This document shows, piece after piece, positions 9,948 through 57,137 of a DNA stretch of 64,000 nt. Both the position numbers and the translations under genes were made by a program. Under the pieces are notes generated by a model that saw only the letters and a list, made by a program, of their open reading frames with translations, was not told the origin of the DNA and did not search any database. The stretch comes from a virus, in IMG/VR virus record IMGVR_UViG_3300033149_002985, positions 1-64,000 of that record, one strand, 5' to 3'. Position 1 is the first letter of the stretch. Each line of letters starts with the position of its first letter.

Positions 9948-11741
9948 ATGGTAAATAACGATACTCAATTTTTAATAAATAATTTAATGCATTTAATGAT
10001 GCAAAAGATTTATGTACCCTCAGATTTTCATGGTAGGGTACAAGCTGTTAAAGAAATGCAAGATAATGATGTATCTGGCTTAGTAGACTCTTTAACTGAT
10101 TTTCAAGTTCAATCTGCTTCTGTAGATTTTAATATTGAAACTAGTAATGATGAGCTTACTGCCATTTATAAAAATTGGTCGGATAATATTAATCGAGACT
10201 ATGATGGAAAAATTCCTACTGGAATTAAACCATTAGCTGAAGAATATTTCAAAGAGAGATGGAAATACTCTTCTTTTCCTATATTAAATATTGCAAAATG
10301 GGAAGCAGACCCTAAAAGTAAACTTATATTACCTTCAAAAATGTTCTTTTTCGATGGCGAAAGTGTTTATGCTAAAGATAAAAACCCAGATAGTCAAGCA
10401 CTAGGAATAGACCAATACAATTATTATATTGGCCAGGAAATGAAATCTCAACATCTTTTAAAGAGCAATGTTATTTTTAGTAGAGCTAATGGTAAATGGA
10501 GCGACAAATATCCTAATCCTGTATTAATTAAAAGGGGAATATATTATAATTGGAGAATTATCGAGGCATTAAAACGAAACGAAATTGATGTGTTAGACCA
10601 AGTAATACCTTATTTATTTGTTATTAAAAAGAATACTGAACGATTAATGATTGATAAAAATCGCAAGTATTCAGATGAAAAATTACAAGAAATAATTACT
10701 AAATTTGAAGAATTGATTAATAAAAGCCAAGATGCTAAAACATCTCTTGCTGGTAAATCAACACCTATTAGGGCAACTCAAATTGACGAAGAAATTCAAC
10801 ATTTAATTCCAGATTTAGAAGCTTTATTTAAACTGGAATTATTTGCGTCTGCTGAAAAAAATATTTTATCAGGATTAGGATTTATTGATGTTATAGATTC
10901 CGCAACTTCGACAAGAAGAGAATCAATTTTAAATCCAAAACCGTTTATTCAAGAAGTTACGTCAGGAGTAGAAGGATTTAAACAAGTTATGAAAGACCTT
11001 GTTATTAAAATTAAACAAAAAAACGAGGAACATTCTAAATATATGAATGCGTCTTATGAAATTACCTCTACACCGATTAAAGGTTTTATGACTGATAAAT
11101 TTAAAGAAAGAATTCGCCAGTTATGGGATAGGGGTGTTATTTCTTCTCAAACAGCAGTTGAGATTATTGGAGAAAATATTAATCCTAAAGTTGAAATTCA
11201 AAGACGTGAAAATGAGGCAAAAACTGGTATTGACCTTGTTTTATATCCTCATTTAACAGATAATACAGAAGATAAAGGAATTGATATTGCAGGGCAACCA
11301 GAAGAAGATGATACCGATATTCCAGATGATAAAAAAGACAAAGTTGAAAAGCAAAATTTTGATAAAGCATCTTTAAATAATCCTTTAGAAGAAGAAATGG
11401 AATTAATTGGTTCTCCTTATGCTTCTATAAAAGATTTGCCAAAAAGTATTTCTGAACGAATTAGAGGTATTGACAAAAGACGAGCTTGGTTAAGAATTTT
11501 TAATAGTGCTTATAATTATTATCTAGGAAAATTTGGAAGTGCCCAAAGAGCTGAATCTTTAGCTTTTGCTACTGCAAATTCAAAAATTAAAACTGTTAAT
11601 TTGAAAGTTAAGAAGAAAAAAATAATCAAACAAAAAACTCCAGATAAAGCACAATTAGAAAAGGAAACGGTAGACAAGGAAATAAAAAACAAACAAAATT
11701 CATTATTGGACAAATTACTTGGGCGACAAAATAAGGAATAG
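9948..11741 (+). CDS. portal protein with C-terminal ChaB-like domain
   Basis: Follows TerL, 597 aa; PYASIKDLP...IFNSAY...AFATA resembles ChaB. Confidence 0.7.
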   Translation: MVNNDTQFLINNLMHLMMQKIYVPSDFHGRVQAVKEMQDNDVSGLVDSLTDFQVQSASVDFNIETSNDELTAIYKNWSDNINRDYDGKIPTGIKPLAEEYFKERWKYSSFPILNIAKWEADPKSKLILPSKMFFFDGESVYAKDKNPDSQALGIDQYNYYIGQEMKSQHLLKSNVIFSRANGKWSDKYPNPVLIKRGIYYNWRIIEALKRNEIDVLDQVIPYLFVIKKNTERLMIDKNRKYSDEKLQEIITKFEELINKSQDAKTSLAGKSTPIRATQIDEEIQHLIPDLEALFKLELFASAEKNILSGLGFIDVIDSATSTRRESILNPKPFIQEVTSGVEGFKQVMKDLVIKIKQKNEEHSKYMNASYEITSTPIKGFMTDKFKERIRQLWDRGVISSQTAVEIIGENINPKVEIQRRENEAKTGIDLVLYPHLTDNTEDKGIDIAGQPEEDDTDIPDDKKDKVEKQNFDKASLNNPLEEEMELIGSPYASIKDLPKSISERIRGIDKRRAWLRIFNSAYNYYLGKFGSAQRAESLAFATANSKIKTVNLKVKKKKIIKQKTPDKAQLEKETVDKEIKNKQNSLLDKLLGRQNKE

Positions 11742-42729: not shown

Positions 42730-43512
42730 TTACCTCTTATATTTTTTTGGAATAAAAGTTAATTCTTCTCTAATTTCTTCTCTTAATTTATTTTGATCAT
42801 AAGTTTGTTTATTTAATTTATTAAAAAATGTAGAATAATTTATCTTTTCAAATGTAGGGATTTTTGAGTTAGGTGAAACATTCCAAATTTTCACATTATT
42901 TTCATTTTTATAAACTCCATATTCATGTTCTGCTCTTGAGATTCTTTTATTGTTTTCTAACTGAGTAGCTTGATACCAATTAACTTTTCCTATACCTCTA
43001 TGCTTTAATGTTAAAGGCTTACCAGTATAACGACTTATTATATTTCCGTATTGATAAAAATGAGTTAAAGCTCTACCTTGAGAATCGTGAACTAAACTAT
43101 CCTTATCTTCACCTTTTTGACTTGAATTATCAAATCCTAATAAAAATATTTCCCCTTCATCTAAAATATAAATAGCTAAACTCAATGCAAATAATCCTGT
43201 CAAAGTAGCAGAATAAACGCCATGATGACAATCTCTGACATATTTAGAAGCCGTAATTAATTCAATATTGTTAGGTTTTGTAGGAACATTAGTATGTAAT
43301 CTTCCAACTGTTAATGGAAGTTTTTCTAAGTATTTTATTTCGTTTAAATAATAAGTATCATCTACATACATCCAACAAGTGCTATCCACAAAATGATGCG
43401 AATAATTTAATCCAATTATAAATTTATCTTTAAGTTTAGAAAATAAATCTTTATCGATTCCTTCTAATACGGAGCAACCACCGCCCAAGATTATTGCTTG
43501 TTTAGCTAACAT
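42730..43512 (-). CDS. MptE/DUF115 (Maf/sialyltransferase-like) Rossmann-fold transferase
   Basis: IILGGGCS, IGLN, IFLLGFD, HFY, NVSPNS motifs. Confidence 0.7.
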   Translation of the reverse strand: MLAKQAIILGGGCSVLEGIDKDLFSKLKDKFIIGLNYSHHFVDSTCWMYVDDTYYLNEIKYLEKLPLTVGRLHTNVPTKPNNIELITASKYVRDCHHGVYSATLTGLFALSLAIYILDEGEIFLLGFDNSSQKGEDKDSLVHDSQGRALTHFYQYGNIISRYTGKPLTLKHRGIGKVNWYQATQLENNKRISRAEHEYGVYKNENNVKIWNVSPNSKIPTFEKINYSTFFNKLNKQTYDQNKLREEIREELTFIPKKYKR

Positions 43513-44060
43513 TATAATATCCTATCAGGATTGATTCTTTTTAATAATTCATGATATATTAAAAAGGTATTTTTAGCATCATCTTTTGCATTATGTTTTT
43601 TACCATCAAATCGCATGCCTAAACGGATTAATGATTTTGCTAATCCCGACCGATGGCTTTCTCCTTTAGAAAACATATAAGATATAAAAAGAGTTTTTAC
43701 ATCTATCCAACGGCGACCAAATAAAAAAATTTCATCATCTAAGTCTAATGCCTTCCGCAAATCTTGACTATCTCCTCCACCCCAAGTTAAAGGATTACGA
43801 AAACATTTATAATGAGCATGAAGAGCCTTTAAATCTTCATAAATTTCAGGAAAAGAAATTCCATGATCTATATCTCTTTGTTTAATTCCAGTTAATTTTT
43901 TAATATATTCTGATAATAGAAGAGTTACTTTAACATGTTCGCAATATTCTTCTAAAATCTTCCCCGATTTTAAATTGCCTATAACAACCCCTATTTGAAT
44001 AATAGTTTGGCAAGGTTGTTCATATTCCATGTCTAAAGAAACAATATTAATATCTTTCAT
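43512..44060 (-). CDS. DEDDh 3'-5' exonuclease
   Basis: SLDME, IIQIG, LTGI, HNAKDDA. Confidence 0.88.
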   Translation of the reverse strand: MKDINIVSLDMEYEQPCQTIIQIGVVIGNLKSGKILEEYCEHVKVTLLLSEYIKKLTGIKQRDIDHGISFPEIYEDLKALHAHYKCFRNPLTWGGGDSQDLRKALDLDDEIFLFGRRWIDVKTLFISYMFSKGESHRSGLAKSLIRLGMRFDGKKHNAKDDAKNTFLIYHELLKRINPDRIL

Positions 44061-44062
44061 TT

Positions 44063-44386
44063 TTATTCTGGAAAGAATTTATTTTCCCATCCTCTTATAA
44101 AATTAATACCATACTCTAAAATACCATAACAATCATTCATTATTTCATTATATATTTCTTCTGCTTCTTTTAAAGCTTCTATTTCAGTTTCGAATATTTT
44201 ACATTCTCCAAAATAATCTTTTAATACTTTAGGATTTATTTCATTGCGTTTTTCATGTTTAGGTAAATGACCTCCACAATGTTGACATTGATGTTGTCCA
44301 TTACTAATACATTTAGGTATTGGATTATTACAACAAGTAAAAATTTCCCACCAATAGAGATTATCAATAGCTTGTGCATGAGTCAC
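44063..44386 (-). CDS. hypothetical Cys-rich protein
   Basis: CCNN..CQHCG. Confidence 0.55.
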   Translation of the reverse strand: MTHAQAIDNLYWWEIFTCCNNPIPKCISNGQHQCQHCGGHLPKHEKRNEINPKVLKDYFGECKIFETEIEALKEAEEIYNEIMNDCYGILEYGINFIRGWENKFFPE

Positions 44387-44556
44387 TCTAAAACCATCTA
44401 AAGACTGTAAAATGTAGATCCCGTTGTCTGAACTGATCTCTACTGCCCTCCTTTATACTTTTTTAACACTTCCAGGTCTTACTCTGCCTTTCTTATCATC
44501 AAGAGCATCATAAACCTTTTGTTTCCTTAATAGTCTATTTACTTTATTTCTATGTT

Positions 44557-44892
44557 TCATTTGAGTCCCTCTTTGAGTTGAGCTATACGCTCTATTACAG
44601 AACTAGCACAGTTGAAACAATCGTTATGCAATTCTAACTCCTCTATCCTCGCCTTGATTGTCTCTTTCTTATGATGAAGAGATTGCTCGTTAATACATTC
44701 CTTTTGTGTGTTAATTAATTCTAAATCTTCTTCGGCATTTCTTTCATACATTTTCTCTTGTTTTTCCAATGCAGAACGTAGAAAGAATTTAACTTCCTCA
44801 CCACAACTCACCCAACCATCTTCGCACTTCTTATCTAAGCCATGTGGAAACTTCTCATCGAATTCTTTCATCTTCTGGTCTATATATTCATT
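44557..44892 (-). CDS. hypothetical protein
   Basis: AGGGG RBS before MNEYID. Confidence 0.55.
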   Translation of the reverse strand, partial: NEYIDQKMKEFDEKFPHGLDKKCEDGWVSCGEEVKFFLRSALEKQEKMYERNAEEDLELINTQKECINEQSLHHKKETIKARIEELELHNDCFNCASSVIERIAQLKEGLK

Positions 44893-45278
44893 CATTATAC
44901 CCCTTTGCATATAGCGCATCTACTATTAAATATTCAACCCCATACATAATATCCCCAACTTCTTCTCTTGCATTTTCATTTGTAAAAGAAACCTGTTTGT
45001 GAAGATGTTGTTGTATGCAATCACATACAATATCTGCTATTTTTTCTTTATCCATTATTTTTTACTCCTTCCACATCCATAACATAAAATAGAAACTAAA
45101 TATAAATAGCCATCCACTTATAAATGTTCCAAGAATAATTTTAAGAAATTCCATTATTGTTTATTTCCTTTTTTATTATTAGAAAGAGCTTTAACATATG
45201 ACCATTCATTATATGTTTTTTGAGGAAATCCATTTTCTTTTAATTCTTTAGCTATTGCTAAATCTACTGTATATTCTT

Positions 45279-46007
45279 TCATGATTGTCCTTTTGGTTTT
45301 TCATCGTTCAAAATTGTTTTTTTATATAAATGACCAGAAGCTGTGTGATAGATACAAATTCCCTCCGCATTCATAAAACCTGGAACAGCTTTACTTCCTT
45401 CCATTTTTAAACGCATTAAAATAGTATCAATTGTAATAGTATTAAACATCCCTTCATATAAAATAGGAACAACTTTACAGCATTTTGGAGCGGGGGAAGT
45501 ATATTTTTCTTCTTTTGTTTTAGAGTTAATACTAATTAATCTTTTCTCTTTATTATGTTGATGCCATTTTTTAACATTAAATAATGCAAGTCTTTTTTCG
45601 TCTAATCCATAATTTCTATTTATTCCTTTACCGTAAAATTCTCCAAAATGCCTCCCTTTTCCTAGTTTGAGAAGTTCTTCTGCGTTTTCTTTAACCCATC
45701 GAGCAAAACCATGATTATCACAATTTTTTCCGCTATCTACCGAAAGCCATCTTGTACGAGAACCAGCAAACATATATAAAATATCATTTTCATCCGTCAT
45801 TGCGAGTGTTTTATAAAGACAATATTTATCAATAAATTCTTTCATAGCTTCATCTGTGCCTACTCCTTGATTCCATTCAGTAAAAAATGAATTATGTAAA
45901 TCTTGTCTACGCATAATAACAATTTGTCCATTAGTTCCATCAATTTTTTCGCTGATTACTATATCTCTACTTAATCGAGGTATTTTATTAAATTTTTGGA
46001 ATTCCAT
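45279..46007 (-). CDS. RNA ligase (Rnl2-like nucleotidyltransferase domain)
   Basis: SEKIDGTN (motif I), GSR, GEFYG (III), LFNV (IIIa), EGI (IV), YKK (V). Confidence 0.82.
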   Translation of the reverse strand: MEFQKFNKIPRLSRDIVISEKIDGTNGQIVIMRRQDLHNSFFTEWNQGVGTDEAMKEFIDKYCLYKTLAMTDENDILYMFAGSRTRWLSVDSGKNCDNHGFARWVKENAEELLKLGKGRHFGEFYGKGINRNYGLDEKRLALFNVKKWHQHNKEKRLISINSKTKEEKYTSPAPKCCKVVPILYEGMFNTITIDTILMRLKMEGSKAVPGFMNAEGICIYHTASGHLYKKTILNDEKPKGQS

Positions 46008-46308
46008 TTTTACTCCTTATAAAATAAAAAATACTTGTTAAAATGATTCCTATAAATAATAATGCAATAACAGCAATAGCTGTAATTTCTCCTAAAAATT
46101 CTGAAGTTATGACATTCATAAAACCTTTAATAAAATTAGTCGTTTTTGTTCCTTGTATAATAATACCTGAAAATATCATCCAAAAACCTAAATTAAAAAA
46201 ATTTTGTAAAGTTAAATATTCAACACATCCTTCTTTATATTTTATACTTTTAACATAAGTGAAATACATAATAATTCCACCTAATACAATTATTATATTA
46301 AATAACAT
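45988..46308 (-). CDS. membrane protein (3 predicted TM segments)
   Basis: Hydrophobic segments. Confidence 0.55.
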   Translation of the reverse strand: MLFNIIIVLGGIIMYFTYVKSIKYKEGCVEYLTLQNFFNLGFWMIFSGIIIQGTKTTNFIKGFMNVITSEFLGEITAIAVIALLFIGIILTSIFYFIRSKNGIPKI

Positions 46309-46598
46309 TAATTATTTCCTTCTTCACAAACAAATTTAAAATCTAATAAATTATATAAAATTGAACTAAGCATAAAACCATTAAAAATATGTATCCAATG
46401 TATATCAAAAAATTTAGCAGAGAAATTAGCAATGAAAGTGTATAAAATAATTCCTATTAAATGTATTTTTTGTGCTTGAGTCATTCCAATATTCTCTTTT
46501 TAATATCTTTCCTAATATTCCAAAAACCTGCAAGAGAAATGAGTATTAAAATAGATGCAATTATTTGATAGATATTCATGATCTTTCTTCCCTATATA

Positions 46599-46628
46599 AG
46601 TATAACATACGCTTTAGAAGGCTGTCAA
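46599..46628 (-). promoter_or_regulatory. sigma70 promoter TTGACA-N18-TATACT
   Basis: TGTCAA 46623-46628 and AGTATA 46599-46604 on the + strand. Confidence 0.85.
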
Positions 46629-46822
46629 GAGCTCAACCTGATAATAATATGAGTAGGAAAAGCATAGTCATTTAAGAACACTTTTATACAATTATCATCT
46701 TCATCATGCAAAAGTCTCCAAACATTACTACCTCCAGATTCTTCATAACCCTCTGCAATTAAACCATTTACAGTAGCTCGTAATAATTTTTTATAAAATT
46801 CTAAATTCTCAAGAACGTCCAT
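46625..46822 (-). CDS. hypothetical protein
   Basis: AGGAG RBS. Confidence 0.55.
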   Translation of the reverse strand: MDVLENLEFYKKLLRATVNGLIAEGYEESGGSNVWRLLHDEDDNCIKVFLNDYAFPTHIIIRLSS

Positions 46823-47421
46823 TAAGATCTCCTATTTTTAAATTCCCTACTTTTCTGCCAATGTATAATTACAGGCTCTTTAATGTAATTAGGAACTTCT
46901 TTTTTCATATTTATCACAACACAATAGCTGGCTGGTAATTTATAAATATTCAAATCAACTTGTTTTTCGATTATTCGTTCCAAAATTTTTTGTTCCCAAA
47001 CATTAGGAGCTTCTTTACAATCTCTAATACATTGTTCGAAAATTTTAATCATTTTTTCATTATATTTTATAAACATTGTGCCAGATAATAGATGGAAATT
47101 ATCCCCCCCTGTTTGATTCCTCCAATTTAAATACCAATCTAGCCAATGAGCTCCAAAATCTGTTTCTTTTGGCAAATCAAAAAGTAATTGGGGATAAGAT
47201 TCTATTATTGCATCTGCATCTAAGAATACGACATCTTCTTTAAATTTATTCATTGTATTCAATATAAAAGTAGGTTTATATGATGTATTTGCATTCCAGT
47301 TTTGAAGATCAATAACTTTTTCAATATGATAATCTAACTTCCACTTTTTTAAAGAAGGTAATAAATAAGTATTCATTACATTTTCATAATTTCCTGGAGT
47401 GTAATATGAAATAAATTTCAC
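46822..47421 (-). CDS. GT-A nucleotide-diphospho-sugar transferase (GT77/GT34-like)
   Basis: YKP.FIL, VFLDADA (DxD), SGTMF, EQ, IIHWQ. Confidence 0.8.
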   Translation of the reverse strand: MKFISYYTPGNYENVMNTYLLPSLKKWKLDYHIEKVIDLQNWNANTSYKPTFILNTMNKFKEDVVFLDADAIIESYPQLLFDLPKETDFGAHWLDWYLNWRNQTGGDNFHLLSGTMFIKYNEKMIKIFEQCIRDCKEAPNVWEQKILERIIEKQVDLNIYKLPASYCVVINMKKEVPNYIKEPVIIHWQKSREFKNRRS

Positions 47422-47575
47422 TTTTTAACCTCAACTAATTTATATATTTTTCCATTTTTAAGTATTATTTTAGCATCTTTGGCTTCTTCTAAAGTTAAAG
47501 AACCGCCTATTAATTCTCTCCCATCAGATAATCTAATATATCCTTCAGCTAATACACCAATTACATATTGATTTT

Positions 47576-48454
47576 TCATAATCCTACCTCCTTTAATTTT
47601 TTAAATAATTCTTGAATCCTAATACTAATATCGTGGTCTTGATAACATATTTTTTGAGTTTGTTTTCCAATATATCCTAAATATTCATATTGTAATAAAA
47701 AAATTAATTTTTTAATCATAGAAAACGAATCATCGTAAAAAAATATTTCTTCATTTTCTTTAAATAACATACGAGTATCTTCTCTATTATATGTTAATAC
47801 AGGAGTGCCACAGGCACTACTTTCAAAAATCCGATGAGCCAAAGCAGAAGTATCATTTGTAATATCTAAAACAATATGGGTTTTATTAATTTCTTCTATT
47901 AATTGTTCTCCTTCTATAAATCCGTGAGTATCTTCGTTTTTGTCCCACTCATGACCAAAAACTTTTACATTAAATCCTAATTCTCGTAGTTTATTAACTA
48001 CTTCATTTCGATTAGGAATAAAGCTATGTTTGCCAACTCCAATTACTAATATATCTGTTTCTTTTTTTAAATGGAGATTTTTATGATAGCGTTTATCACA
48101 AGAAGTTGGATTATAAATAACTAATTTTTTATTTTTTAAATCATTGTATAATCTCCAATCATTAGTAACATAAATATCACAATTTTCCATATGTTCTTCA
48201 GAATAAAGATTAGGATCAGATAATCCAAATGCTATTACAGGTATTTTGATTTTTTCGAATTCTTCTTCTGTAATTTTAGTTCCTGCACCTACAAGCCAAA
48301 CTTGATCATATTTATTGTAATCTATTTTAGGATTTTGATTTTTATTAAATAAATCTACTTTATGTCCAAGAATTTGCAAATATTCATAAGTTGCTCTTGT
48401 TGTAGGAAAGCTATTCCAATTATAGAAAAATGGTATTACCATACAAATTTTCAT
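47576..48454 (-). CDS. GT-B glycosyltransferase (CgeB/Glyco_trans_1_2-like)
   Basis: RIFESSACGTPVLT...LFKENEEI...DH....RI. Confidence 0.85.
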   Translation of the reverse strand: MKICMVIPFFYNWNSFPTTRATYEYLQILGHKVDLFNKNQNPKIDYNKYDQVWLVGAGTKITEEEFEKIKIPVIAFGLSDPNLYSEEHMENCDIYVTNDWRLYNDLKNKKLVIYNPTSCDKRYHKNLHLKKETDILVIGVGKHSFIPNRNEVVNKLRELGFNVKVFGHEWDKNEDTHGFIEGEQLIEEINKTHIVLDITNDTSALAHRIFESSACGTPVLTYNREDTRMLFKENEEIFFYDDSFSMIKKLIFLLQYEYLGYIGKQTQKICYQDHDISIRIQELFKKLKEVGL

Positions 48455-48457
48455 CTT

Positions 48458-49735
48458 TTATCCTTTATTATAATTAGTTTGTTTGATTACTCGTTCCATT
48501 TCTCCAACCACCCATTTTTGTTCTTCCATTGTAAGAAATTTGTTATGAATAAGAGGAGTATACTCTCTTTTTTTAGCTTCTTCGCCTATTTTTTGGTAAA
48601 AATCTTTATTATATTGTCGAAAATTTTTACTAAGTATTTCACAATTAAAAGAATCAGGATCATTAAAGATCGGAGTTCCAGGAAGAGGAATAAAAGTACT
48701 AAGCGTAGCATAATCTATTGGGAAAACTTTTAATAAAGTTTCATTAATAAGAGGCGAATCTAGTCGTTCGCCAGGCACACCTGCCATAAAAAGACCTCTA
48801 ACCTTTAATCCTGCTCTTTGAGCATTAATACAACCCTTAAACATTTTTTCAACTGTTGTATTCTTATGTAAGAAATCCAATACTCTCTGATCTAAATTTT
48901 CAATACCAGGAGACATTTCTCTTGCTCCTGAATCATACATTGCGTTAGCAATTTCTTCTGTTACAGATTCGGCTCTAATACTACATCTCCAAAGTATTTT
49001 CAACGGTTTAACTTTCTTACAAAATTCTAAACATCTCTTAGAATTAGAAGTTAAATTATCATCGGCTAATCTAAATTGATTGATGTTATACTTCTTTTTA
49101 AGTAATTCCATTTCTTCTATAATACTATCAATGGAGCGATAGCGAACTTTCCGTGTCCACATAGCTTGAGAAGCACAGAAACTACAATTAAAAGGACATC
49201 CTCTGCTAGTTAAAAAATTGATACTATCTCCTTCTTTTTTATCAAAGAAAATTCCTTTACCTAATTTAGTTTCAACTAAATCATAGTTTATAAAAGGAAG
49301 AGAATCCAAATCTTTTACGTATTCTTTCATAAAATAAACAGGTTTTAATTGATTTTTTTCAACATCGTTTATCATTTCAAGAATTAAATTTTCCCCTTCT
49401 CCTACGCAAATAGCGTCAAATAGTTTGGTTTCGTTAACTTCTTTAAACATAGATGAAACATGAACTCCACCTATAAAAATCTTTGTCTTAGGAAAATGTT
49501 TCCTAATTAATTTAGCACAATCCTCGTTCATAGGATATTCCAAGGTAGTACCTCCCAAGCAAATAATGTCATAATCGGGATAATTTAACAATTCTTTTTT
49601 AAGCATGGGTCGAATAAATTTAACTTCATGTCCTGCGTTTTGGGCAATAGTGGCTACCATTAGTAGTCCCACAGGAATCTGTACGTGTTGGCGCACGAGA
49701 TATGGTGCTGGAGACTCTAGAAAAAGAATTCTCAT
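48458..49735 (-). CDS. cobalamin-binding radical SAM enzyme (class B)
   Basis: P.GLL.VA, IGGVH, GEGE B12 domain; TSRGCPFNCSFC; GVPGE; PLPGTP. Confidence 0.92.
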   Translation of the reverse strand: MRILFLESPAPYLVRQHVQIPVGLLMVATIAQNAGHEVKFIRPMLKKELLNYPDYDIICLGGTTLEYPMNEDCAKLIRKHFPKTKIFIGGVHVSSMFKEVNETKLFDAICVGEGENLILEMINDVEKNQLKPVYFMKEYVKDLDSLPFINYDLVETKLGKGIFFDKKEGDSINFLTSRGCPFNCSFCASQAMWTRKVRYRSIDSIIEEMELLKKKYNINQFRLADDNLTSNSKRCLEFCKKVKPLKILWRCSIRAESVTEEIANAMYDSGAREMSPGIENLDQRVLDFLHKNTTVEKMFKGCINAQRAGLKVRGLFMAGVPGERLDSPLINETLLKVFPIDYATLSTFIPLPGTPIFNDPDSFNCEILSKNFRQYNKDFYQKIGEEAKKREYTPLIHNKFLTMEEQKWVVGEMERVIKQTNYNKG

Positions 49736-50217
49736 GAAATATCTCCTTTTAACCAATTTAACCAATTTGCTTTATAATTTTTCTGAAAATGAACAATACC
49801 AAATTGAAAACCCATAGGTGGAAATTCTTTTGGAGTATTAATTAATAAAATTTCTTTAATATCAAAACCATGATTTTGCATATCTCGAACTCTTGCTTTT
49901 GTCCAAATATGATTAATTGTGATTAAAAAAACAATATTTTGTGAAATTTCAAAAGAATGAATTAAAAATTTTCGCATTTTGGAATAAGGTGGATTTGTAA
50001 TAATCCAATCAACTTTTTTATTATAATTAAAAAAATCTTTTCCTTCTTCTATTTCACACCAATCTGCTTTCATATATTTTAAAAAATTACCAGTTCCTTT
50101 ACATGGTTCAAGAATTTTACCAGAAGGTTTAAAATGTTCAACAATAGCTTTACACAAATAATCTGGAGTCATTATAACATCATTACTTGAATAATTTCTA
50201 TTTGGTTGATTTTTCAT
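49732..50217 (-). CDS. DNA N6-adenine methyltransferase (minimal, gamma-like)
   Basis: MTP, ILEPCKGTGNF, IITNPPYS. Confidence 0.85.
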   Translation of the reverse strand: MKNQPNRNYSSNDVIMTPDYLCKAIVEHFKPSGKILEPCKGTGNFLKYMKADWCEIEEGKDFFNYNKKVDWIITNPPYSKMRKFLIHSFEISQNIVFLITINHIWTKARVRDMQNHGFDIKEILLINTPKEFPPMGFQFGIVHFQKNYKANWLNWLKGDIS

Positions 50218-50377
50218 TTTTCCACCTTTTCTTTACATGGATCAACTTCTGCTAATAATTTACCATCTAATGCCCAATATTGAGTTATTCTTCTAGCAAC
50301 TCCACCATTATTTTGTTCTTGTTGACTTGCTCCACGAACTTCGATATCTGTTACTATAACCTGTATTAATTTCGCAC

Positions 50378-51154
50378 TCATGATTTCTCCTTTGGTTTGA
50401 AAGGACAAGCATCCCATAGAGGATTCAAATTTATTTCTGATTTATTATATTGTTTGAATTTTTGATCAATTAATAAAAAATTAGTTTCCTTATTTATTAT
50501 TAAAGGAATATCGTCTTTACGATTTACAGAAGTAAAATAATCTCGAAATTTAAATCCTTTACCTAGAACTTTTTCAGATAATCGAACCCAAATATTAGGA
50601 ATTCCGTATGCATCTGCTATTATTAACCCATGCAAAGCAGAACTCATAACTTGTTCACTTGCACAAATTTCATCTATAAATTGATAGAGATCTCCTGTAA
50701 TATCAATAAAATGAATATTTTTAAATCGTTTTTTAAGAATAGGAATTAATTCTCTATCTATATGGTGTGGAATAATAGATAAGGCATATTTTTTATCCAT
50801 CCTTGGCTTATAAAATCTTGACATTAATAATGCTGGATCACCATAAATTTTTGGACAGTCATAACCTCTTTTAATTAATTCTTCTCTAGTTAATTTACCC
50901 CTTACTGCACAAATTTTTTTAGGTTTTTCTTGAAACATTGTATTATCTGTTTCAGACATTTTACCAGTGCCCCAAATTATAGTATTTTTATCAGCCCATC
51001 CAATCACACTTCCAATTGCCATATAAATTGTTTCGTTTTCTGGATTCAGAAAACTATTATTAACAATAGTTGGAGCATGTCCAGTAATTAGACGAATTAA
51101 TTCGCTATTTAAAGTATCACCAAAATTTCTTAATTTACAAGCTCTAAGTAACAT
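50378..51154 (-). CDS. polysaccharide pyruvyltransferase (ExoV-like)
   Basis: NFGD, IGS, WGTG, AVRG.LT, GDPALL, IPH, SSALHGLIIADAYGIP, FKF.DY. Confidence 0.9.
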   Translation of the reverse strand: MLLRACKLRNFGDTLNSELIRLITGHAPTIVNNSFLNPENETIYMAIGSVIGWADKNTIIWGTGKMSETDNTMFQEKPKKICAVRGKLTREELIKRGYDCPKIYGDPALLMSRFYKPRMDKKYALSIIPHHIDRELIPILKKRFKNIHFIDITGDLYQFIDEICASEQVMSSALHGLIIADAYGIPNIWVRLSEKVLGKGFKFRDYFTSVNRKDDIPLIINKETNFLLIDQKFKQYNKSEINLNPLWDACPFKPKEKS

Positions 51155-51170
51155 TTTTTAAAATCCTCTA

Positions 51171-51656
51171 TTATTTTTGTGCGTATTTTCTTAAATCCAC
51201 AAATTTAATTTTTCTTTGTTTACTTTTGGGTTTAAAAATAATAATAGCAGAAGCAAATGGAGCAGTTGTTTTTTTACCTCCAAACTTTACTTTGCCTCTC
51301 ATAAACCAGATTTCATCTGCATTATTGCAAATAATATCATGCCAATAGGTTCTATCTGTAGCGGAAACAATTAAAAATACTACAGTAGCATTATTATTTT
51401 CTGATTCTGCATATCCTTTTTCTAACCATTCTCTAGTATGTCCACCATAGGGAGGATTAACGAAAACAATCTCATCTTTCCAAGATTTAATTAATCCATT
51501 ATCTTTTATAGTATAATGTTTTTTACATTTTGTATTTTCATGAGTACAACAAGGATCAAGGGTAAAATTAAATATAGAATCTAAATAATTAAATAAATTT
51601 AAAGGAGTAGCCCATTCGTTACTTTTAGATGAAACCATCGCCTTTTGTAATGACAT
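51171..51656 (-). CDS. phage Dam-like N6-adenine methyltransferase
   Basis: EWATP, FTLDPC, VFVNPPYG, TD..YWH, APF.SAI. Confidence 0.9.
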   Translation of the reverse strand: MSLQKAMVSSKSNEWATPLNLFNYLDSIFNFTLDPCCTHENTKCKKHYTIKDNGLIKSWKDEIVFVNPPYGGHTREWLEKGYAESENNNATVVFLIVSATDRTYWHDIICNNADEIWFMRGKVKFGGKKTTAPFASAIIIFKPKSKQRKIKFVDLRKYAQK

Positions 51657-51668
51657 AATTATACTCCT

Positions 51669-52268
51669 TTATTTAGCATTAGCTTTTATTCTCCAAAAAT
51701 AATAACCTTTTCCTTTTTCCTTTTTAATACTTATAATATGATATTGTTTAAATAATTCTTTAATTTCTTTAGGGGAATATTCTATCAAAGGTTCGGGTTT
51801 TTTACAATACCTTTTTTGAGTTCCTATCCTAAATAAAATATCAATTTCCCCCTCAGGGGTTAAAACTCTTCTAAAAAAATCTAAATATTGTTTACAAAGT
51901 TTAGGAGAAATATGTTGAAAAACATGCCTAGCATAAACAAAATCTATAGGTAATAATATTTTCTTTTCATAATGTTCTGCAAGAACTAATTTAACCTTAT
52001 ATATATCTCCGTGCATTTTGATAAAATCAAAAGCTTCATTTAATATCTTAGATGACACTTCAATCCCATAAACTTTTTTAGCGTATTTAGAAAAATAATA
52101 TGTTTCCCTGCCATACCCACAGCCAATATCAACAATAACTTTATCCTTAATCTTTTCAATAATTTCTGAATCTTCAAGTGCTAATTGAAAATTTTTATAT
52201 TGTTTATGATTGGCAAAATAATCATTTTGCTGAAGTTTTTTCCAAACACGTAAGTTGTGGTCGATCAT
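51669..52268 (-). CDS. class I SAM-dependent methyltransferase (small-molecule/sugar type)
   Basis: VDIGCGYGR, VFQHI, VLTPEG. Confidence 0.88.
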   Translation of the reverse strand: MIDHNLRVWKKLQQNDYFANHKQYKNFQLALEDSEIIEKIKDKVIVDIGCGYGRETYYFSKYAKKVYGIEVSSKILNEAFDFIKMHGDIYKVKLVLAEHYEKKILLPIDFVYARHVFQHISPKLCKQYLDFFRRVLTPEGEIDILFRIGTQKRYCKKPEPLIEYSPKEIKELFKQYHIISIKKEKGKGYYFWRIKANAK

Positions 52269-52428
52269 TTATTTCCTTTTTCTTAAATCGTATTTGCTCT
52301 CAATTAAAGATAACAAATCTCCTCTAGCATCTTCCATCTCTCCGTTTAACATATCAGCAAAATAGTCAAGATAATATTCTGACCAACATGATAAAATATC
52401 TTCTTTGGTTATTTTATAATCACTATTT

Positions 52429-53100
52429 CTATCCATTATACTCTCTTTTATATTTTTCTATGACTTCTTTATATGATAAATGTTCAATATCTTTTAAATT
52501 GTATTTTCCGCCCCATTCTTTATCTATTTTTCTCTTCCAAGAACCAATTCTATTACTATGGAAATCAATACTATATAAAACTTTATTAACATCAGTTGTA
52601 GGATAAACTTTCTCCATTACTTCTCGCCATTTTGCGTCTTCTGCACCAAAATTCATATTTTCTGGAAAACGAATAGTTTTATTTACTGGAAAGAGCAAGG
52701 TAGCAAAACCCCTAGTTGTACCAGGTTTCTTAGTTTTTAAATTTTCCCATGTACAATAAACCATTTTATCTTCTGTCATTTCTTTTAATTGTAGTTCAAT
52801 TCTTTCAGGATGAGAAACGTCGTCAGAATCCATCCACATAGCGTATTTTGTATTGCATAAATCTAATAAACGATTCCTAGCATGACCTACACCCCAATTT
52901 TCATCCCAATAATAATATTTAATTCTATTATCTTGTTGACTTAACTTTTCAACAATTTGTTTAGTATTATCTGTTGATCCGTCATCATAAATAATCAATT
53001 CAAAATTTGTATATGTTTGATTGAGAATACTTTGAATAGATCGCTCTATAAAATCTTCTCTATTATAAACTGGCATTAATACACTTATTTTTTCATTCAT
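52429..53100 (-). CDS. GT2 glycosyltransferase
   Basis: ISVLMPVYN, DDGSTD, ARN, MDSDD, AED. Confidence 0.93.
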   Translation of the reverse strand: MNEKISVLMPVYNREDFIERSIQSILNQTYTNFELIIYDDGSTDNTKQIVEKLSQQDNRIKYYYWDENWGVGHARNRLLDLCNTKYAMWMDSDDVSHPERIELQLKEMTEDKMVYCTWENLKTKKPGTTRGFATLLFPVNKTIRFPENMNFGAEDAKWREVMEKVYPTTDVNKVLYSIDFHSNRIGSWKRKIDKEWGGKYNLKDIEHLSYKEVIEKYKREYNG

Positions 53101-53344
53101 AATAAACTCCTTTAAATTTATTCCCTTTTAAATAATTACGAACTTGTGTAGCTTTAATTAAAATCTCTTCATATTGACATCTAATACAAGAATTACACTC
53201 ATCTATACAATCACCATGATGCTCATTTTGCGATTCTTTAATAAATTGAGCCCATGTTCTTAATGTTTCACATCTATCAGGTTTTTTATCCATATAAATA
53301 CAATAAACTAAATAAGTAATATCTCTTAATAATAATTTTTTCAT
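53093..53344 (-). CDS. hypothetical protein
   Basis: HHGDC..C.RC. Confidence 0.55.
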   Translation of the reverse strand: MKKLLLRDITYLVYCIYMDKKPDRCETLRTWAQFIKESQNEHHGDCIDECNSCIRCQYEEILIKATQVRNYLKGNKFKGVYYE

Positions 53345-53931
53345 ATTAATTTATCCTCTCTTGGTATCCCTTCATAAACAATCTCGAATTTTTCAGGATG
53401 TGCAATAACATATTTATATAAAGACCAAGTTGTGAGTTCACTATGAGTTTTTGCACCAAAGGTTTCGCTAAGTGATTTTTTTGCCCAGTATGCAATACGA
53501 TTAATACATATATCTTGATTAGGTAATTGCATGTATCTAGCAAATAATTTTATCCCTGTCAACCAAGTTAAGAGATTTCCAAAACAATTAAGAATATCGT
53601 ATCCTTCATCTAAATCTTCCATTGTTATTTTACATAAATAACTTCTTTCAATGCTACTCATTCCTTTTATTCTAAAAATAAAAAGATTATTATTGGTATT
53701 CAAAAGTTTTGTTGAAGAATTAATTTGCACTTTACTTTGTTGTTCAATAATAGAATCTTTATTTAAAAACATTAAAGCATGATAGTGCAGAGGTTTTTCC
53801 AATTTTCCAACTATCATTCTAAAAAAATCATGCCAAATTGTCGGGCTTCGCATTAAATATTTAACAAATTTAGGACAAATTTTTTTACTATCTACTAATG
53901 CGAAATCGCCTGGTAAAATATTAATTTTCAT
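53341..53931 (-). CDS. permuted papain-like NlpC/P60 (YaeF/YiiX-like) enzyme
   Basis: LPGD...HYHA...GYD...DIC with His before Cys; GGAGG RBS before ATG 53931. Confidence 0.6.
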   Translation of the reverse strand: MKINILPGDFALVDSKKICPKFVKYLMRSPTIWHDFFRMIVGKLEKPLHYHALMFLNKDSIIEQQSKVQINSSTKLLNTNNNLFIFRIKGMSSIERSYLCKITMEDLDEGYDILNCFGNLLTWLTGIKLFARYMQLPNQDICINRIAYWAKKSLSETFGAKTHSELTTWSLYKYVIAHPEKFEIVYEGIPREDKLI

Positions 53932-54403
53932 TTTTATACCTCCAAATAAAATTACCTGCGTTTGGTTTATTACTTTTACAACATTGACATATATTAGAAT
54001 GATTAATTTTAAGGGTTTTACTTGCAAATATAAGACTTTCCCATTCATTAATAAATTTCCCATTTAAATCATATTGTAAAATTGGTATACTGGAAACTCT
54101 TTTATTTCTTTCTGCACTATTTAATCTTTTTTCAATATATCTGCAATTTTTAAAAGTATAATTATTATCATTTTTTATTCTATCAATAGTGGGTTGTTTC
54201 ATTTCGTAAGCTTTATCAAAATACCATAACTCCCTTAATTGATTTTCTGTTATTAGACATTTAATCCCTCTACCTCCATAATCTTTATAGGACTTATTAT
54301 TGGGATTGGTACATCGTTGTTTAATAACAACTAATGTTTTTCGCCAAGGAAATCTCTTGTAATAATTTAAAATATCTTTATTTATTTTATCTTGATTTTT
54401 CAT
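53921..54403 (-). mobile_element. HNH-type homing endonuclease with NUMOD1 (paralog of 41562-42212)
   Basis: RCTNPN..YKDYGGRGI...TIDRI...NCRY; ILQYDLNG.FINEWES. Confidence 0.82.
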
Positions 54404-54405
54404 AA

Positions 54406-54921
54406 TTAAATCAGCATTAATAAATAACCAGTAAATATAAATCCATAGTTTATTAAATCACTAACTAATAAATTATTTCCAAATACTTTAATTTCTCCCC
54501 ATCCTCGATAACTAAATATTGTTTGTCCTATAATTATGAACAAGCATCCTATAATATAGAACAGCCAATTTGCTTTTAAAATAGGACATACTAAACCTAT
54601 TAAACACATTCCTAATCCAATTGTACCACGCACAAAAATATCAGTTAAACGATGGTTCTGATTTAAAATCTTATACCAAAATCTTCCAAGAGTAGAACCT
54701 GCATCTGTCGCATCAGGAATACCATATCCCATGCTGACCCATATCCCAAATGTACCTAAAAGAATACCTAACCATGATTGTAAAGAGATAACTCCTATTG
54801 TTGCTAAAATAATGGGTAATATTACTCTTCTCCATTCTTTAACTCCTTGACCTCCTAAAGCTCCTAAATAGGCTCCGATAAGGGGCAATAGATATTTTAA
54901 TTGTTTAAAAAATTTGAACAT
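54406..54921 (-). CDS. multi-pass membrane protein
   Basis: About five hydrophobic Gly-rich segments, GGAG RBS. Confidence 0.65.
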   Translation of the reverse strand: MFKFFKQLKYLLPLIGAYLGALGGQGVKEWRRVILPIILATIGVISLQSWLGILLGTFGIWVSMGYGIPDATDAGSTLGRFWYKILNQNHRLTDIFVRGTIGLGMCLIGLVCPILKANWLFYIIGCLFIIIGQTIFSYRGWGEIKVFGNNLLVSDLINYGFIFTGYLLMLI

Positions 54922-55236
54922 TCGTTTATCTCCTCTAATTCATTTTCTGTTATTGAAATACAAACCTCGTTGTCTGGACTTAAATAAGGATTATAACCTT
55001 GTCTACAAAGCGAAACAATTAATTGATCTGCATAATCTTCATTTAGAATTTCTATTTTAAATTCATATTTTTTCATTTATGAGTCTCCCAATCAAATTTT
55101 AAAATATCTTTCTTTTTTGGTGGTTTATCAAATCTAATAGTATTATCCCCTGTATATTCCCAGGGATTTAAAAAATCAGGAACTCTAATAGTAAATGTCC
55201 ATTTAAAAATTTTTATAATTCTATACATTTCTACTT

Positions 55237-55899
55237 TCATTTTAAAATTTCCTCTATATCTTTGTATTCAATAAATTTATTTAATCGACTTGTTTTTGAA
55301 CAACTAATAATTTTAATATCTGGGCGTTCTTTATTAAGTTTTTTTAAGACTTCTGCAAAATGAGGGTAATAATTACTCAAATTTTTATTGAATTTTTCAA
55401 CACTACGTCCATATCCTCCATGATAATGAGTTTCTTCTGTTGAACACATATCCATCCCAAGCAGGTAGATCTTTTTGAATTTTTTAATAATGGTATACTG
55501 GAATGCACAGAAGCCACTATTATAACCACTGTGGAAGTTATCGAAATTATATCCTACGTCTTTTGCTGAACGGCAAATAATAATCTGGTTAAAATCTGTC
55601 AGATTGTACGTTAAATTATAACGAGTATCAGTAATTTTTCCATTTTTAAGTTGCATAAAGGAAGCAATGAGATTCACGACAAATATCTTCTTGGACGGCG
55701 TTAGCTTCCAGCGATTGTAAAGGTTATACTTTTTCAAATAATTCAAAAAAGTGATATCCGTCGTAATAAAAAAGTTTGCGTTCGGGACATCCAAAAATGA
55801 TTTATTACTAACTATAGTAATTTTGTCTTTCAATTTGTTAAAATCGAATTCTTTTAAACTCGACCCCCCTGCCACAATAAATATAGAATTGTTATTCAT
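55237..55899 (-). CDS. second MptE/DUF115-like transferase
   Basis: IVAGGSSL, NSG..A, IYLLGMD, HYHGGY, ISCS..SRL. Confidence 0.72.
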   Translation of the reverse strand: MNNNSIFIVAGGSSLKEFDFNKLKDKITIVSNKSFLDVPNANFFITTDITFLNYLKKYNLYNRWKLTPSKKIFVVNLIASFMQLKNGKITDTRYNLTYNLTDFNQIIICRSAKDVGYNFDNFHSGYNSGFCAFQYTIIKKFKKIYLLGMDMCSTEETHYHGGYGRSVEKFNKNLSNYYPHFAEVLKKLNKERPDIKIISCSKTSRLNKFIEYKDIEEILK

Positions 55900-56605
55900 A
55901 TTTGTCCGATTTTCTTAAATTATCTTCAGCCCACATCGGTTGAAGATTAGTATAATTAAAACATTTTAATTGCTCTTCTGGCTTGCTTAAATCAAACAAG
56001 ACACATGGTTTAATATGGTCTATAACCCACTCTTTTTTACCATTCCAACCTCCACCATAATTATCCCAATTCATACCTTCTACAAATTGTTCTTCTAAAT
56101 GTTGTTTTAATTGTTCTATAGAACAACCTAATAGCTCGATTGTTCTTTTACTTTTTGAGTTTATTTTCAACGCCTGTCCGATGCGCCTTCTTAAATTGTT
56201 TGTAATTCTAAAATTAATATCTGTTTTTCTTCTATTTCTTTGATACTTACTTGTTTGTTTATTAATTTTTTCTTTGTTTTTATCTTGGTATTCTTTATTG
56301 TATTTCGCAAACCTTTCTCTATTTTTTCCTTGATAGTCTTTTTGATATTTTGCAACTTTTGCTTTATTTTTATCTCTATACTCTTTTGCGTATTTTAATG
56401 ATTTCTTTTTGTTTTCTGGCTTGGCAAGGTATTTTTTATTTCGTTTAGCGATTTTATCCTTATTATTGTCGTTGTATTTTTTTACACATTCTTTACATTC
56501 AGGTCGTAATCCGTCTTTCATGCTTTTATTCTTACTAAATGCACTCAGAGGTTTTACGGGTTGTTTACAGTTTTTGTTATTACAAATTTTAGTTTCTTTA
56601 TCCAT
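55892..56605 (-). mobile_element. HNH homing endonuclease with KY-rich helical repeats
   Basis: N-terminal zinc finger; WVIDHIKP...CFNYTNLQPMWAEDNLRK. Confidence 0.85.
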
Positions 56606-57003
56606 TACAAATCCAGTAAGCCTTTTATTTTTAAAATATCAATAGTATATTCTTTTCCATCGATTATTTTACCACCTAAACTTTTTCTATTAATATCATT
56701 GGGATCGATTTTTCCTTCTTCAACATAAGCCATTTCAATCATTACTGTATCTGTGTCAGCAACAAAACGATGTTTGGTTGGACATCTGACTACCCAACTT
56801 TCATTTTCCATTAATGATGCGCTTCCAAATTCTGTTTCAATTCTGACGTTTCCTGAAATAACAATAAATTTATTAATTTTATTTTTATGTGTATGGGTTG
56901 AACAAAATGTGTTAGCTTTTAAATATAGCAAATCAACTTCATTTTTATCATCTAAATGTATTCTTCTTCGTGTTCCCCAAATCTTATTTATATTTTCGCT
57001 CAT
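56605..57003 (-). CDS. cupin protein (sugar isomerase-like)
   Basis: KIWG, CSTHTHKNK...F.VISG...HRF...E; AAGGAG RBS before ATG 57003. Confidence 0.78.
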   Translation of the reverse strand: MSENINKIWGTRRRIHLDDKNEVDLLYLKANTFCSTHTHKNKINKFIVISGNVRIETEFGSASLMENESWVVRCPTKHRFVADTDTVMIEMAYVEEGKIDPNDINRKSLGGKIIDGKEYTIDILKIKGLLDL

Positions 57004-57137
57004 TATTCTCCTTTTTGGAATGATATTTTGGATTACACCAAATACAACCATTTTTTGTAAAAAATTTATCACTAGGTAATATTCTAAAACAAGTCTTACA
57101 TTCTAATTCATTTTCAAACCAAGGGCGTGTAAAAATA

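Follow-up and report, generated by a model that had tools for sequence, protein, structure and literature searches.

Glycosyltransferase clusters of the mycobacteriophages Che8, Corndog, and Myrna reportedly decorate capsid and tail-tube subunits. They consist of phage-encoded soluble glycosyltransferases and methyltransferases that act in the cytoplasm. Giant viruses (PBCV-1 with its transferase A64R, the Mimivirus clusters, and the predicted pathway for Kdo, 3-deoxy-D-manno-oct-2-ulosonic acid, in CroV) also make complex methylated or pyruvylated glycans in the cytoplasm, with multidomain transferases. In bacteria, the E. coli waa operon (with WaaZ) and the Campylobacter lipooligosaccharide (LOS) loci (with CstII) rely on soluble transferases and on ulosonic acid donors activated with cytidine monophosphate (CMP), and carry variable genes between conserved ones. 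The 'LPS / cell-wall' clusters (LPS, lipopolysaccharide) of the cyanophages P-SSM2, S-SCSM1, and S-SCSM2R place many glycosyltransferases, epimerases, and kdsA/kdsB in virulent phages. Phage glycan clusters commonly receive the label 'LPS genes' or 'DNA glycosylation' with no evidence for it. Metagenomic clusters for DNA hypermodification combine GT-A and GT-B glycosyltransferases (GTs) with sugar-activating genes (Pyle et al. 2023/2024; Lee et al. 2026). About 65% of the approximately 25,000 GT-bearing viral contigs surveyed by Pyle et al. have no base-modifying neighbor. The region described here lies at 42.7–57.1 kb of the first 64 kb of an uncultured phage genome, IMG/VR record IMGVR_UViG_3300033149_002985; this 64,000-nucleotide stretch is called the window below. 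By sequence comparison, the region is a copy of a modular, horizontally exchanged viral cassette, predicted to assemble a glycan, with fixed ends and a swappable interior.

The two ends of the cassette, its anchors, are a head enzyme of the MptE-like/WaaZ/GT42 type and a small tail enzyme of the GT-A fold. The mycobacteriophage clusters differ from it in having few genes and in belonging to actinophages, and no WaaZ/GT42-type head enzyme, pyruvylation, or radical S-adenosylmethionine (SAM) chemistry is known there. For the giant viruses, A64R is the nearest solved structure to the tail enzyme, and MptE-like folds are found in ChoanoV1 and Pyramimonas orientalis virus. This likeness is at the level of the fold (~14% identity) and not of the family, and the giant viruses have eukaryotic hosts and another gene set. 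WaaZ and CstII of the waa and LOS loci are homologous to the head enzyme of the cassette. To our knowledge, neither a GT-A partner nor a fusion of the anchors is a feature of those loci. The DNA hypermodification clusters also have secondary transferases resembling A64R, and one lineage has a ThyA homologue in the neighborhood of its cassette. They are defined by a base-priming neighbor, however, which is absent here and from most complete relatives. An organization with fixed end genes has not been reported for the cyanophage clusters, and tblastn found neither anchor enzyme in any cyanophage record. There is no account of the anchored cassette in the searchable literature on phage DUF115, WaaZ, or sialyltransferase-like proteins. 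An earlier sequence-only reading of the window had proposed an undescribed system. This is fair for the specific cassette but not for its general kind, which is known from cyanophages, mycobacteriophages, and the contigs of Pyle et al.

A search of IMG/VR gave 378 tblastn-confirmed places of the MptE-like head protein. The locus counts below rest on the best 80 of these, against which every protein of this phage was also run by tblastn. The GT-A gene occurs in 40 of the 80 viral loci, always on the same strand as the MptE-like gene and downstream of it. The two are adjacent (12–230 bp) or fused in around 18 loci and 4.6–9 kb apart in the remainder. In at least 14 loci they form one open reading frame (ORF) of ~500–520 amino acids (aa). 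Independently, the protein atlas contains viral clusters of ~503–508 aa in which the MptE-like fold is combined with PF03407. Other fusions join an MptE-like domain to a GT2-like domain, and about 23 loci carry two to four MptE-like paralogues. Junctions within the cassettes are tight (208 junctions, median gap −4 bp, 76% overlapping). One locus, L003, is a true relative of this phage. Its compact cassette of ~9 kb holds the cupin, MptE-like, GT2, pyruvyltransferase, radical SAM, GT-B, and GT-A genes and a 65-aa ORF in the same order (44–76% identity), with a second MptE-like gene at its head. Genes scattered or not conserved in relatives had been named beforehand as the outcome that would tell against a common pathway; instead, L003 keeps the order, and half of the viral loci keep the head-to-tail architecture.

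Two side observations concern the head gene in these loci. In L074 (~10001–11212), the MptE-like and GT-A matches apparently lie within one 1,280-aa ORF, just downstream of a homologue of the HNH-like gene found here at 55892–56605. Five loci (L027, L028, L036, L037, and L039; for example L037:1656–3086, minus strand) have a lone MptE-like gene whose divergent neighbor is adenylosuccinate-lyase (PurB)-like. The same PurB-like family adjoins the GT-A homologue in Chlamydiota chromosomes.

The head enzyme of this phage (55237–55899, minus strand) is a minimal protein of 220 aa that matched phrog_4603 (6e-20). It missed the gathering score of PF01973 (19.9 bits vs 34.6). A large protein collection contains 81 homologues, some of which carry precomputed PF01973, PF06002, or PF27901; those at 35–40% identity carry PF27901, named WaaZ_KDO_III in the atlas. 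The structure was predicted with a mean local confidence (pLDDT) of 90.7. The best structural match is the catalytic core of the Maf flagellin glycosyltransferase 5mu5 (Z 14.8, root-mean-square deviation 3.2, 178 residues aligned), and the model also matches Cst-I (Z 12.1), CstII (Z 11.6), and the archaeal MptE HPPK kinase 8sd5 (Z 10.5). The family profile aligned over the full length with E. coli K-12 WaaZ (hhalign 96.2%, E 2.5e-9, 211 columns) and with the CstII sequence (3e-5). Cst-I (6e-4) and the P. multocida LOS sialyltransferase were matched as well; the match to the Maf sequence was weak (0.18). An N-terminal GGxS loop is invariant in the family, and an HYH triad (158–160) is nearly invariant. 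With both fold and sequence homology, the head enzyme is a member of the MptE-like/GT42/Maf/WaaZ superfamily.

The GC content at third codon positions of this gene is uneven. It is 0.27–0.50 in the first ~150 codons and 0.07–0.18 in the last 70, and ~0.1–0.2 in the neighboring genes. The raised tract abuts the HNH-like gene and fits a co-conversion tract left by homing from a donor of higher GC.

The donor of the head enzyme is probably a CMP-activated ulosonic acid, either Kdo or of the sialic-acid type. We infer this from the homology to WaaZ and CstII and from the contents of some cassettes. In the complete genome L035, the cassette itself holds genes for NeuB and a CMP-sugar synthetase, with a second MptE-like paralogue alongside. 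A number of cassettes of the group with fused anchors (the fusion group) end in a KdsB/NeuA-type gene and an SIS gene, and a GT29-type sialyltransferase homologue lies directly upstream of the fusion enzyme. This phage encodes no CMP-ulosonic-acid pathway; therefore, the host would have to supply the donor. A nonulosonate pathway beside the anchor in L007 and L016 was considered and rejected, since the genes there are GT64, E1 alpha/beta, and others; a true NeuB/NeuA set is found in L035 only.

The tail enzyme (46822–47421, minus strand) is a small DxD GT-A of the retaining, A64R-like type, with 199 aa. It matched PF03407 (2.9e-5; 24.6 bits vs a cut-off of 22). D68 and D70 of the DxD motif are invariant in 21 sequences; the motifs LSGT, WDQK, and HxQxSR are conserved, and the family has a basic C-terminal tail. 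The predicted structure (pLDDT 90) has PBCV-1 A64R (2p72) as its top Foldseek match in the PDB (E 4e-10, TM 0.70), followed by alpha-3-GalT, glycogenin, LARGE1, and Skp1 AgtA (retaining GT6, GT8, and GT77-type). The protein is a GT-A enzyme with a DxD metal/nucleotide-sugar site. Directly after it lies a conserved 65-aa ORF (46625–46822, minus strand), which has a 50% identical counterpart in the same position in L003.

The other genes assigned to the pathway lie on the minus strand as well. The cassette starts with a cupin of 155 aa (56605–57072) of the mannose-6-phosphate-isomerase C-terminal type (PF01050, 2.2e-7; C-terminal part of TIGR01479, 1.8e-6). In L003, too, a cupin (44% identity) immediately precedes the MptE-like gene, and one is present in L007. 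The protein is probably a sugar or nucleotide-sugar isomerase/epimerase. The GT2 glycosyltransferase (52429–53100, 223 aa; PF00535, 3e-38) is soluble and 63% identical to its L003 counterpart, and homologues lie near the anchor in 18 of the 80 viral loci. A class I SAM methyltransferase of 199 aa (51669–52268; Methyltransf_25/11/12, 1e-10 to 1e-8) probably methylates a sugar. L003 lacks an orthologue of it; the ORF between the GT-B and GT-A genes there is class I methyltransferase-like but a different one. The polysaccharide pyruvyltransferase (50378–51154, 258 aa; PF04230, 9.7e-11), of the family that places a pyruvate ketal on a sugar, has homologues in 8 of the 80 loci (42–49% identity).

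A B12-binding radical SAM enzyme of 435 aa follows (48458–49765; PF02310 and PF04055). It is of class B and methylase-like; the nearest NCBIfam models are HpnJ, BchE, and PhpK, all scoring far under their cut-offs. It occurs in five loci and is 76–79% identical to its L003 orthologue. An intein-like insert of ~266 aa interrupts the L003 gene itself (L003:12878–14986, plus strand), precisely within the region of the CxxxCxxC iron–sulfur motif. The insert starts with C-LRGDTLIE, ends with VLVHN-C, and contains an HNH-like motif, and it is the flanks of this insert that are 76–79% identical to the uninterrupted enzyme here. The CgeB-like GT-B glycosyltransferase (47576–48454, 292 aa; Glyco_trans_1_2, PF13524, 5.2e-22) is 62% identical to that of L003 and 33% to that of L019. 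Used as a single-protein query against viral contigs, it found nothing. A second MptE-like transferase of 260 aa (42730–43512; phrog_4603, 1.1e-6) is a satellite ~3 kb beyond the gap-free core of the cluster (46625–57072). It had no PF01973 match, and its match to the family profile (hhalign 90.8%, E 1.2e-6) covers the N-terminal half only, GGxS loop included. It is translationally coupled to an exonuclease gene, and a 31% identical counterpart stands at the head of the L003 cassette.

The family scans thus bear out most of the sequence-only reading, which had named a GT2, a CgeB-like GT-B, a DxD GT-A, a pyruvyltransferase, a class I methyltransferase, a B12 radical SAM enzyme, a cupin, and two MptE-like proteins. 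Its observation of co-orientation and coupling also holds, as every gene is on the minus strand and most junctions overlap or are shorter than 20 bp. Two of its assignments found no backing. The 'permuted papain-like' ORF (53341–54063, minus strand) has no match in Pfam, PHROG, NCBIfam, or the PDB and no counterpart in L003. The supposed multi-pass membrane protein (54406–54921, minus strand, 171 aa) has ~3 hydrophobic segments, no family support, and no conserved counterpart in L003. Sequence searches of the PDB with the cupin and the GT-B were equally without a match.

These two ORFs belong to a set of genes that, judged by family and conservation, we regard as interlopers outside the pathway. 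The others are an HNH-like gene (55892–56605) assigned by eye from its C-terminal motif, a NUMOD1 homing-endonuclease-like gene (53921–54403; 6.8e-7), a Dam methylase (51171–51656; PF05869, 4.5e-28), and an NPPY-motif methylase (49732–50217; N6_Mtase, weak, 9e-4), all on the minus strand. The stretch 53341–56605 also holds small ORFs among them. The cassette of L003 has no homing endonucleases, methylases, or membrane protein, and a NUMOD1-like homologue lies elsewhere on that contig. These genes are therefore best seen as insertions in this phage. An RNA ligase (45279–46007) and an RNase T-type exonuclease (43512–44060), again on the minus strand and likewise counted as interlopers, lie between the core and the satellite MptE-like gene. 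The earlier view of the whole stretch as one cluster thus stands for the pathway genes and not for the methylases, RNA ligase, exonuclease, and homing endonuclease-like genes interleaved with them. The two adenine-methylase-type genes lie less than 2 kb apart within the cluster, and neither is matched in the L003 cassette.

The record is a single contig of 92,965 bp rated 99% complete. The GC content of the window is ~29%. An alternative genetic code was ruled out, since code 11 (standard bacterial) already yields dense coding. The plus strand carries a tape measure protein and tail proteins among its genes at 2–37 kb. From 37 kb on, the minus strand carries replication, recombination, and accessory genes, among them two RecA, PrimPol, RuvB, RtcB, a 5'-3' exonuclease, and an integrase-family protein. 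The structural proteins are highly divergent, and most were left unassigned by PHROGs. No match was found among 50,697 deposited phage records, either by megablast of the region or by tblastn of a 552-aa structural protein. Promoter and terminator scans of the region gave sites no commoner than chance; the strongest promoter-like site (46628–46599, minus strand) lies just after the 65-aa ORF, at the end of the gap-free block, and such sites are not above chance.

The interior between the anchors varies widely. Its transferases include GT2, GT4, GT10, GT11, GT25, GT32, GT64, and GT-D types. Alongside them are enzymes of the GDP-mannose 4,6-dehydratase, UDP-GlcNAc 2-epimerase, DegT aminotransferase, and SIS isomerase types. 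The interior also holds methyltransferases (FkbM and class I), radical SAM enzymes (SAM-SPASM and B12), pyruvyltransferases, and E1 alpha/beta pairs dependent on thiamine pyrophosphate (TPP). In two loci (L007:12272–13267 and L016:17168–18232), a transketolase-like pair of the last kind lies beside a GDP-sugar dehydratase, and this combination hints that a branched-chain or two-carbon-extended sugar is made.

Cassette content does not track the relatedness of the tail proteins. L019 and L046 have tail proteins of 66% identity, yet of 20 cassette families they share the two anchors only. L012 and L023 have tail proteins of 44% identity and share the same eight cassette families gene for gene (51–68% identity). 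The loci span at least five backbone lineages. These are a myovirus-like lineage with a baseplate wedge gene upstream, a siphovirus-like lineage with a tape measure and a phrog_1101 tail protein, a siphovirus-like lineage with a J-like central fiber, the fusion group in a DNA-metabolism context, and this phage with L003.

Outside uncultured viruses, the anchors are rare. Among the 50,697 cultured or deposited phage records, the head enzyme occurs in 10 and the GT-A in 1. A scan of 185,579 species genomes gave approximately three true anchor pairs, and the protein-atlas clusters are 88–100% viral. 'DUF115' matches that coincide with the GT-A in cellular loci are an artefact of the GT-A half of the fusion queries. 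One Flavobacteriales chromosome of 5.9 Mb (OY769938.1; L088:9201–17681) holds a cassette of ~11 genes with an MptE-like gene, a GT-A, and shared interior families. It is flanked by a PBP, a TIR-domain protein, and DJ-1 on one side and by DinB and GDPD on the other. The GC content of the island is 36–43%, against 46–50% in the flanks; it looks horizontally acquired and, from its composition, may be phage-derived. GT-A homologues alone occur in chromosomes of Chlamydiota and Hyphomicrobiales. A 179-kb contig of an Asgard metagenome-assembled genome (L093, JAHQJS010000001.1) carries a GT-A, a homologue of the 424-aa helix-turn-helix protein encoded here at 62814–64088, and other cassette families; it may be a mis-binned virus or an archaeal virus. 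One MptE-like homologue (P0028) is labelled Heimdallarchaeaceae.

From these assignments, a mechanism can be proposed. The head enzyme would transfer a CMP-activated ulosonic acid of the Kdo or sialic-acid type, and the A64R-like GT-A would then add a hexose, giving a constant foundation. The GT2, the CgeB-like GT-B, and the second MptE-like enzyme would lengthen this foundation. Decoration with a pyruvate ketal and methyl groups would fall to the pyruvyltransferase, the B12 radical SAM enzyme, and the class I methyltransferase, and the cupin would reshape a sugar precursor. All steps would be cytoplasmic, with no export machinery encoded. Across 558 cassette proteins, the number of hydrophobic segments never exceeds three, and no flippase, polymerase, ligase, or Gtr-type partner is encoded among them. 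Family content and conservation support a real, conserved cytoplasmic pathway of several enzymes with pyruvyl and methyl decoration. To this extent the prediction of a multi-sugar, pyruvylated, and methylated glycan stands, with virion proteins as a candidate acceptor.

The acceptor is the least certain step of the mechanism. We tentatively favor the virion proteins of the phage itself (tail or capsid), and hold this at somewhat less than an even chance. Three lineages have the cassette's opening gene coupled to the final gene of the tail module (−8 to +19 bp), and late co-expression is therefore implied in phages that look virulent. A tyrosine integrase was found in this genome only, among 47 records, and five of the six complete genomes have none (serine recombinases were not searched for); we count this toward a virion acceptor, as we do the near-exclusively viral distribution of the anchor pair. 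Giant viruses that infect protists, and thus hosts lacking LPS, have the MptE-like fold as well. Among solved structures, the one nearest to the modeled GT-A is a capsid-glycan transferase, A64R, which likewise points to virion proteins. If this acceptor were correct, progeny would carry a variable glycan coat, as in mycobacteriophages and giant viruses.

Several points weigh against virion proteins. No acceptor was observed, and the support for a virion glycan is indirect. The named sequence relatives of the head enzyme (WaaZ, CstII, and Cst-I) all act on LPS/LOS and not on proteins. The surroundings of the cassette in this phage, L003, and the fusion group are DNA-metabolism genes and not tail genes. 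Several lineages carry it next to SbcCD-type genes, beside or near the tail-module boundary, and since such junctions often hold accessory genes, the position may mean little functionally. The Flavobacteriales chromosome holds its copy with no phage genes within ~9 kb. Across loci, distances in one anchor domain are correlated with those in the other (Mantel r 0.76, 0 of 2000 permutations), consistent with co-inheritance of the anchors, but shared ancestry alone can produce such a correlation. Receptor competition or restriction systems explain the hypervariability at least as well. Secondary transferases of DNA glycans are also reported to resemble A64R (Pyle et al. 2023/2024; Lee et al. 2026).

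The first alternative is remodelling of the host envelope. Here the branch would be built on the LPS/LOS inner core at the cytoplasmic face of the inner membrane, starting with a WaaZ-like transfer of Kdo or a sialyl group, to which a hexose and then variable sugars are added, and would be exported by the host MsbA/Lpt system. The altered surface would block superinfection or keep progeny off infected cells and debris. Taken by itself, this is a possible but doubtful reading; it is nearly as likely as virion glycosylation because the relatives of the head enzyme act on LPS/LOS and a bacterial chromosome holds a copy of the cassette. The head family is homologous over its full length to WaaZ and is related to sialyltransferases that act on LOS (CstII, Cst-I, and that of P. 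multocida), homologues at 35–40% identity carry the Pfam family WaaZ_KDO_III, and a GT29-type sialyltransferase homologue precedes the fusion enzyme. Cassette contents (GT25, GT10/11, GT4, GT2, Kdo/nonulosonate activation, SIS, GDP-sugar dehydratase) resemble those of LOS/LPS loci, and core assembly, which needs only soluble transferases, is compatible with the soluble-only enzymes. LOS loci have a hypervariable interior between conserved ends, as the cassette does. The GT-A homologues in Chlamydiota and Hyphomicrobiales chromosomes also speak for this reading, and the place beside receptor-binding tail genes matches seroconverting phages.

Against remodelling of the envelope stand the overwhelmingly viral anchor pair and the chromosomal island itself, whose GC below that of its flanks may mark it as phage-derived. 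Unlike the waa and LOS loci, the cassettes have no bona fide GT9 heptosyltransferase, O-antigen ligase, flippase, Gtr-type or multi-pass membrane protein (WaaA was not searched for). GT9 gave only marginal partial matches (24–28 bits, ~60 model positions) in five records, none of them in this genome. The coupling to late tail genes, the lack of a tyrosine integrase in five of six complete genomes, and the related folds in giant viruses, with hosts that have no LPS, also count against it. Lysogenic serotype conversion involves a membrane flippase, transferase, or polymerase and a temperate phage, a pattern that the cassettes do not fit (with serine recombinases outside the search). Classic lysogenic conversion is thus unlikely, because membrane partners are absent and a tyrosine integrase is present in only 1 of 47 records. 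Host-surface change, one of the two alternatives originally listed, is accordingly weakened in its lysogenic form and retained as lytic remodelling of LPS/LOS. That the glycan goes to some acceptor other than virion proteins, LPS/LOS, or DNA is unlikely.

The second alternative, DNA hypermodification, would place an oligosaccharide on a modified phage base as protection against restriction, as in the glycan pathways for 5-hydroxymethylcytosine (5hmC) and 5-hydroxycytosine (5hoC). There are precedents on the chemical side. Phage GT-A/GT-B clusters decorate 5hmC with mono- to trisaccharides, a Kdo-like ulosonic acid among them, and poly-arabinosyl-5hoC is a further DNA glycan. Base priming is part of each of these cases, by a ThyA homologue or by a C5-methylase with a TET-type dioxygenase. 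ThyA-family matches were found in 13 of 46 related records, namely in 10 of the 11 fusion-group records searched, in the siphovirus-like L023 and L047, and in one provirus, which has canonical ThyA only. All fusion-group records with enough upstream sequence have a divergent ThyA homologue ~10 kb upstream on the same strand. The divergent homologues (L083:982–1863, plus strand; L084:628–1569, minus strand; and in the G021–G034 records) score 58–86 bits, against equivalog cut-offs near 327, and may be base hydroxymethylases or 5hoC-synthase-type enzymes. The neighbors of the cassette in this phage are DNA-metabolism genes, Dam-type methylases stand in between its own genes, and the basic C-terminal tail of the GT-A family would also suit a DNA substrate.

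For the phage studied here, a six-frame search of the 99%-complete genome found no PF00303, PF12851, PF00145, PF02511, PF01702, PF00709, or PF00692, and so no ThyA-like, ThyX, TET/JBP, C5-methylase, TGT/DpdA, PurZ, or dUTPase gene; the TET result is a weak negative, as its control was nearly silent. The original statement that no hydroxymethylase, TET, flippase, or polymerase is visible was thus upheld for the whole genome, with that proviso for TET. Four of the five other near-complete cassette-bearing genomes have no ThyA homologue. The cassettes of L012, which has none, and L023, which has one, are orthologous gene for gene. A search for TET/JBP gave 0 of 46 records, again a weak negative with a silent positive control. 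Cassettes with 8–12 transferases and sugar-tailoring enzymes go beyond every DNA glycan known, and we know of no WaaZ/GT42-type enzyme that acts on DNA. DNA may be the target in the fusion lineage. It is a poor explanation in general and for this phage, and we rate it as improbable overall, so that the DNA alternative of the sequence-only reading has lost ground.

A loose set of accessory genes, independent morons with no common product, is very unlikely. In its favor, the methylases, homing endonucleases (two of each), membrane protein, RNA ligase, and exonuclease break up the cluster, and several members occur in few other loci only. Synteny and fusion largely refute this reading, since order and content are kept in L003, the head-to-tail polarity holds in 40 loci, the anchors are fused in at least 14, junctions overlap, and the orthologous nine-gene cassette of L012 and L023 is better conserved than their tail genes.

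It is possible, though rather doubtful, that a large, hitherto unrecognized class of tailed phages with a plug-and-play cassette, built on a fused WaaZ/CstII-like transferase and A64R-like GT-A, coats its virions or rewrites the LPS core of the host during lytic growth. If true, this would be a viral 'glycan serotype' system, with interiors swapped between unrelated phages like O-antigen loci and with a virus-specific priming chemistry. A Kdo or sialic-type acid linked directly to a virion protein, for example, would be without precedent in phages. The cassette type occurs in at least 378 IMG/VR places and nearly nowhere in cultured phages, and part of the unexplained GT-bearing viral contigs gains from it a defined, searchable architecture: a head enzyme, a GT-A tail that is often fused to it, and a swappable interior. 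The cassettes are also a source of unusual sugar-tailoring enzymes, such as B12 radical SAM enzymes, TPP-dependent E1 pairs, and pyruvyltransferases. Whichever acceptor holds, the cassette matters for host range, exclusion of superinfection, evasion of defences, and the surface chemistry of virions. What virulent phages glycosylate, and why so variably, becomes a question that can be approached through two anchor enzymes.

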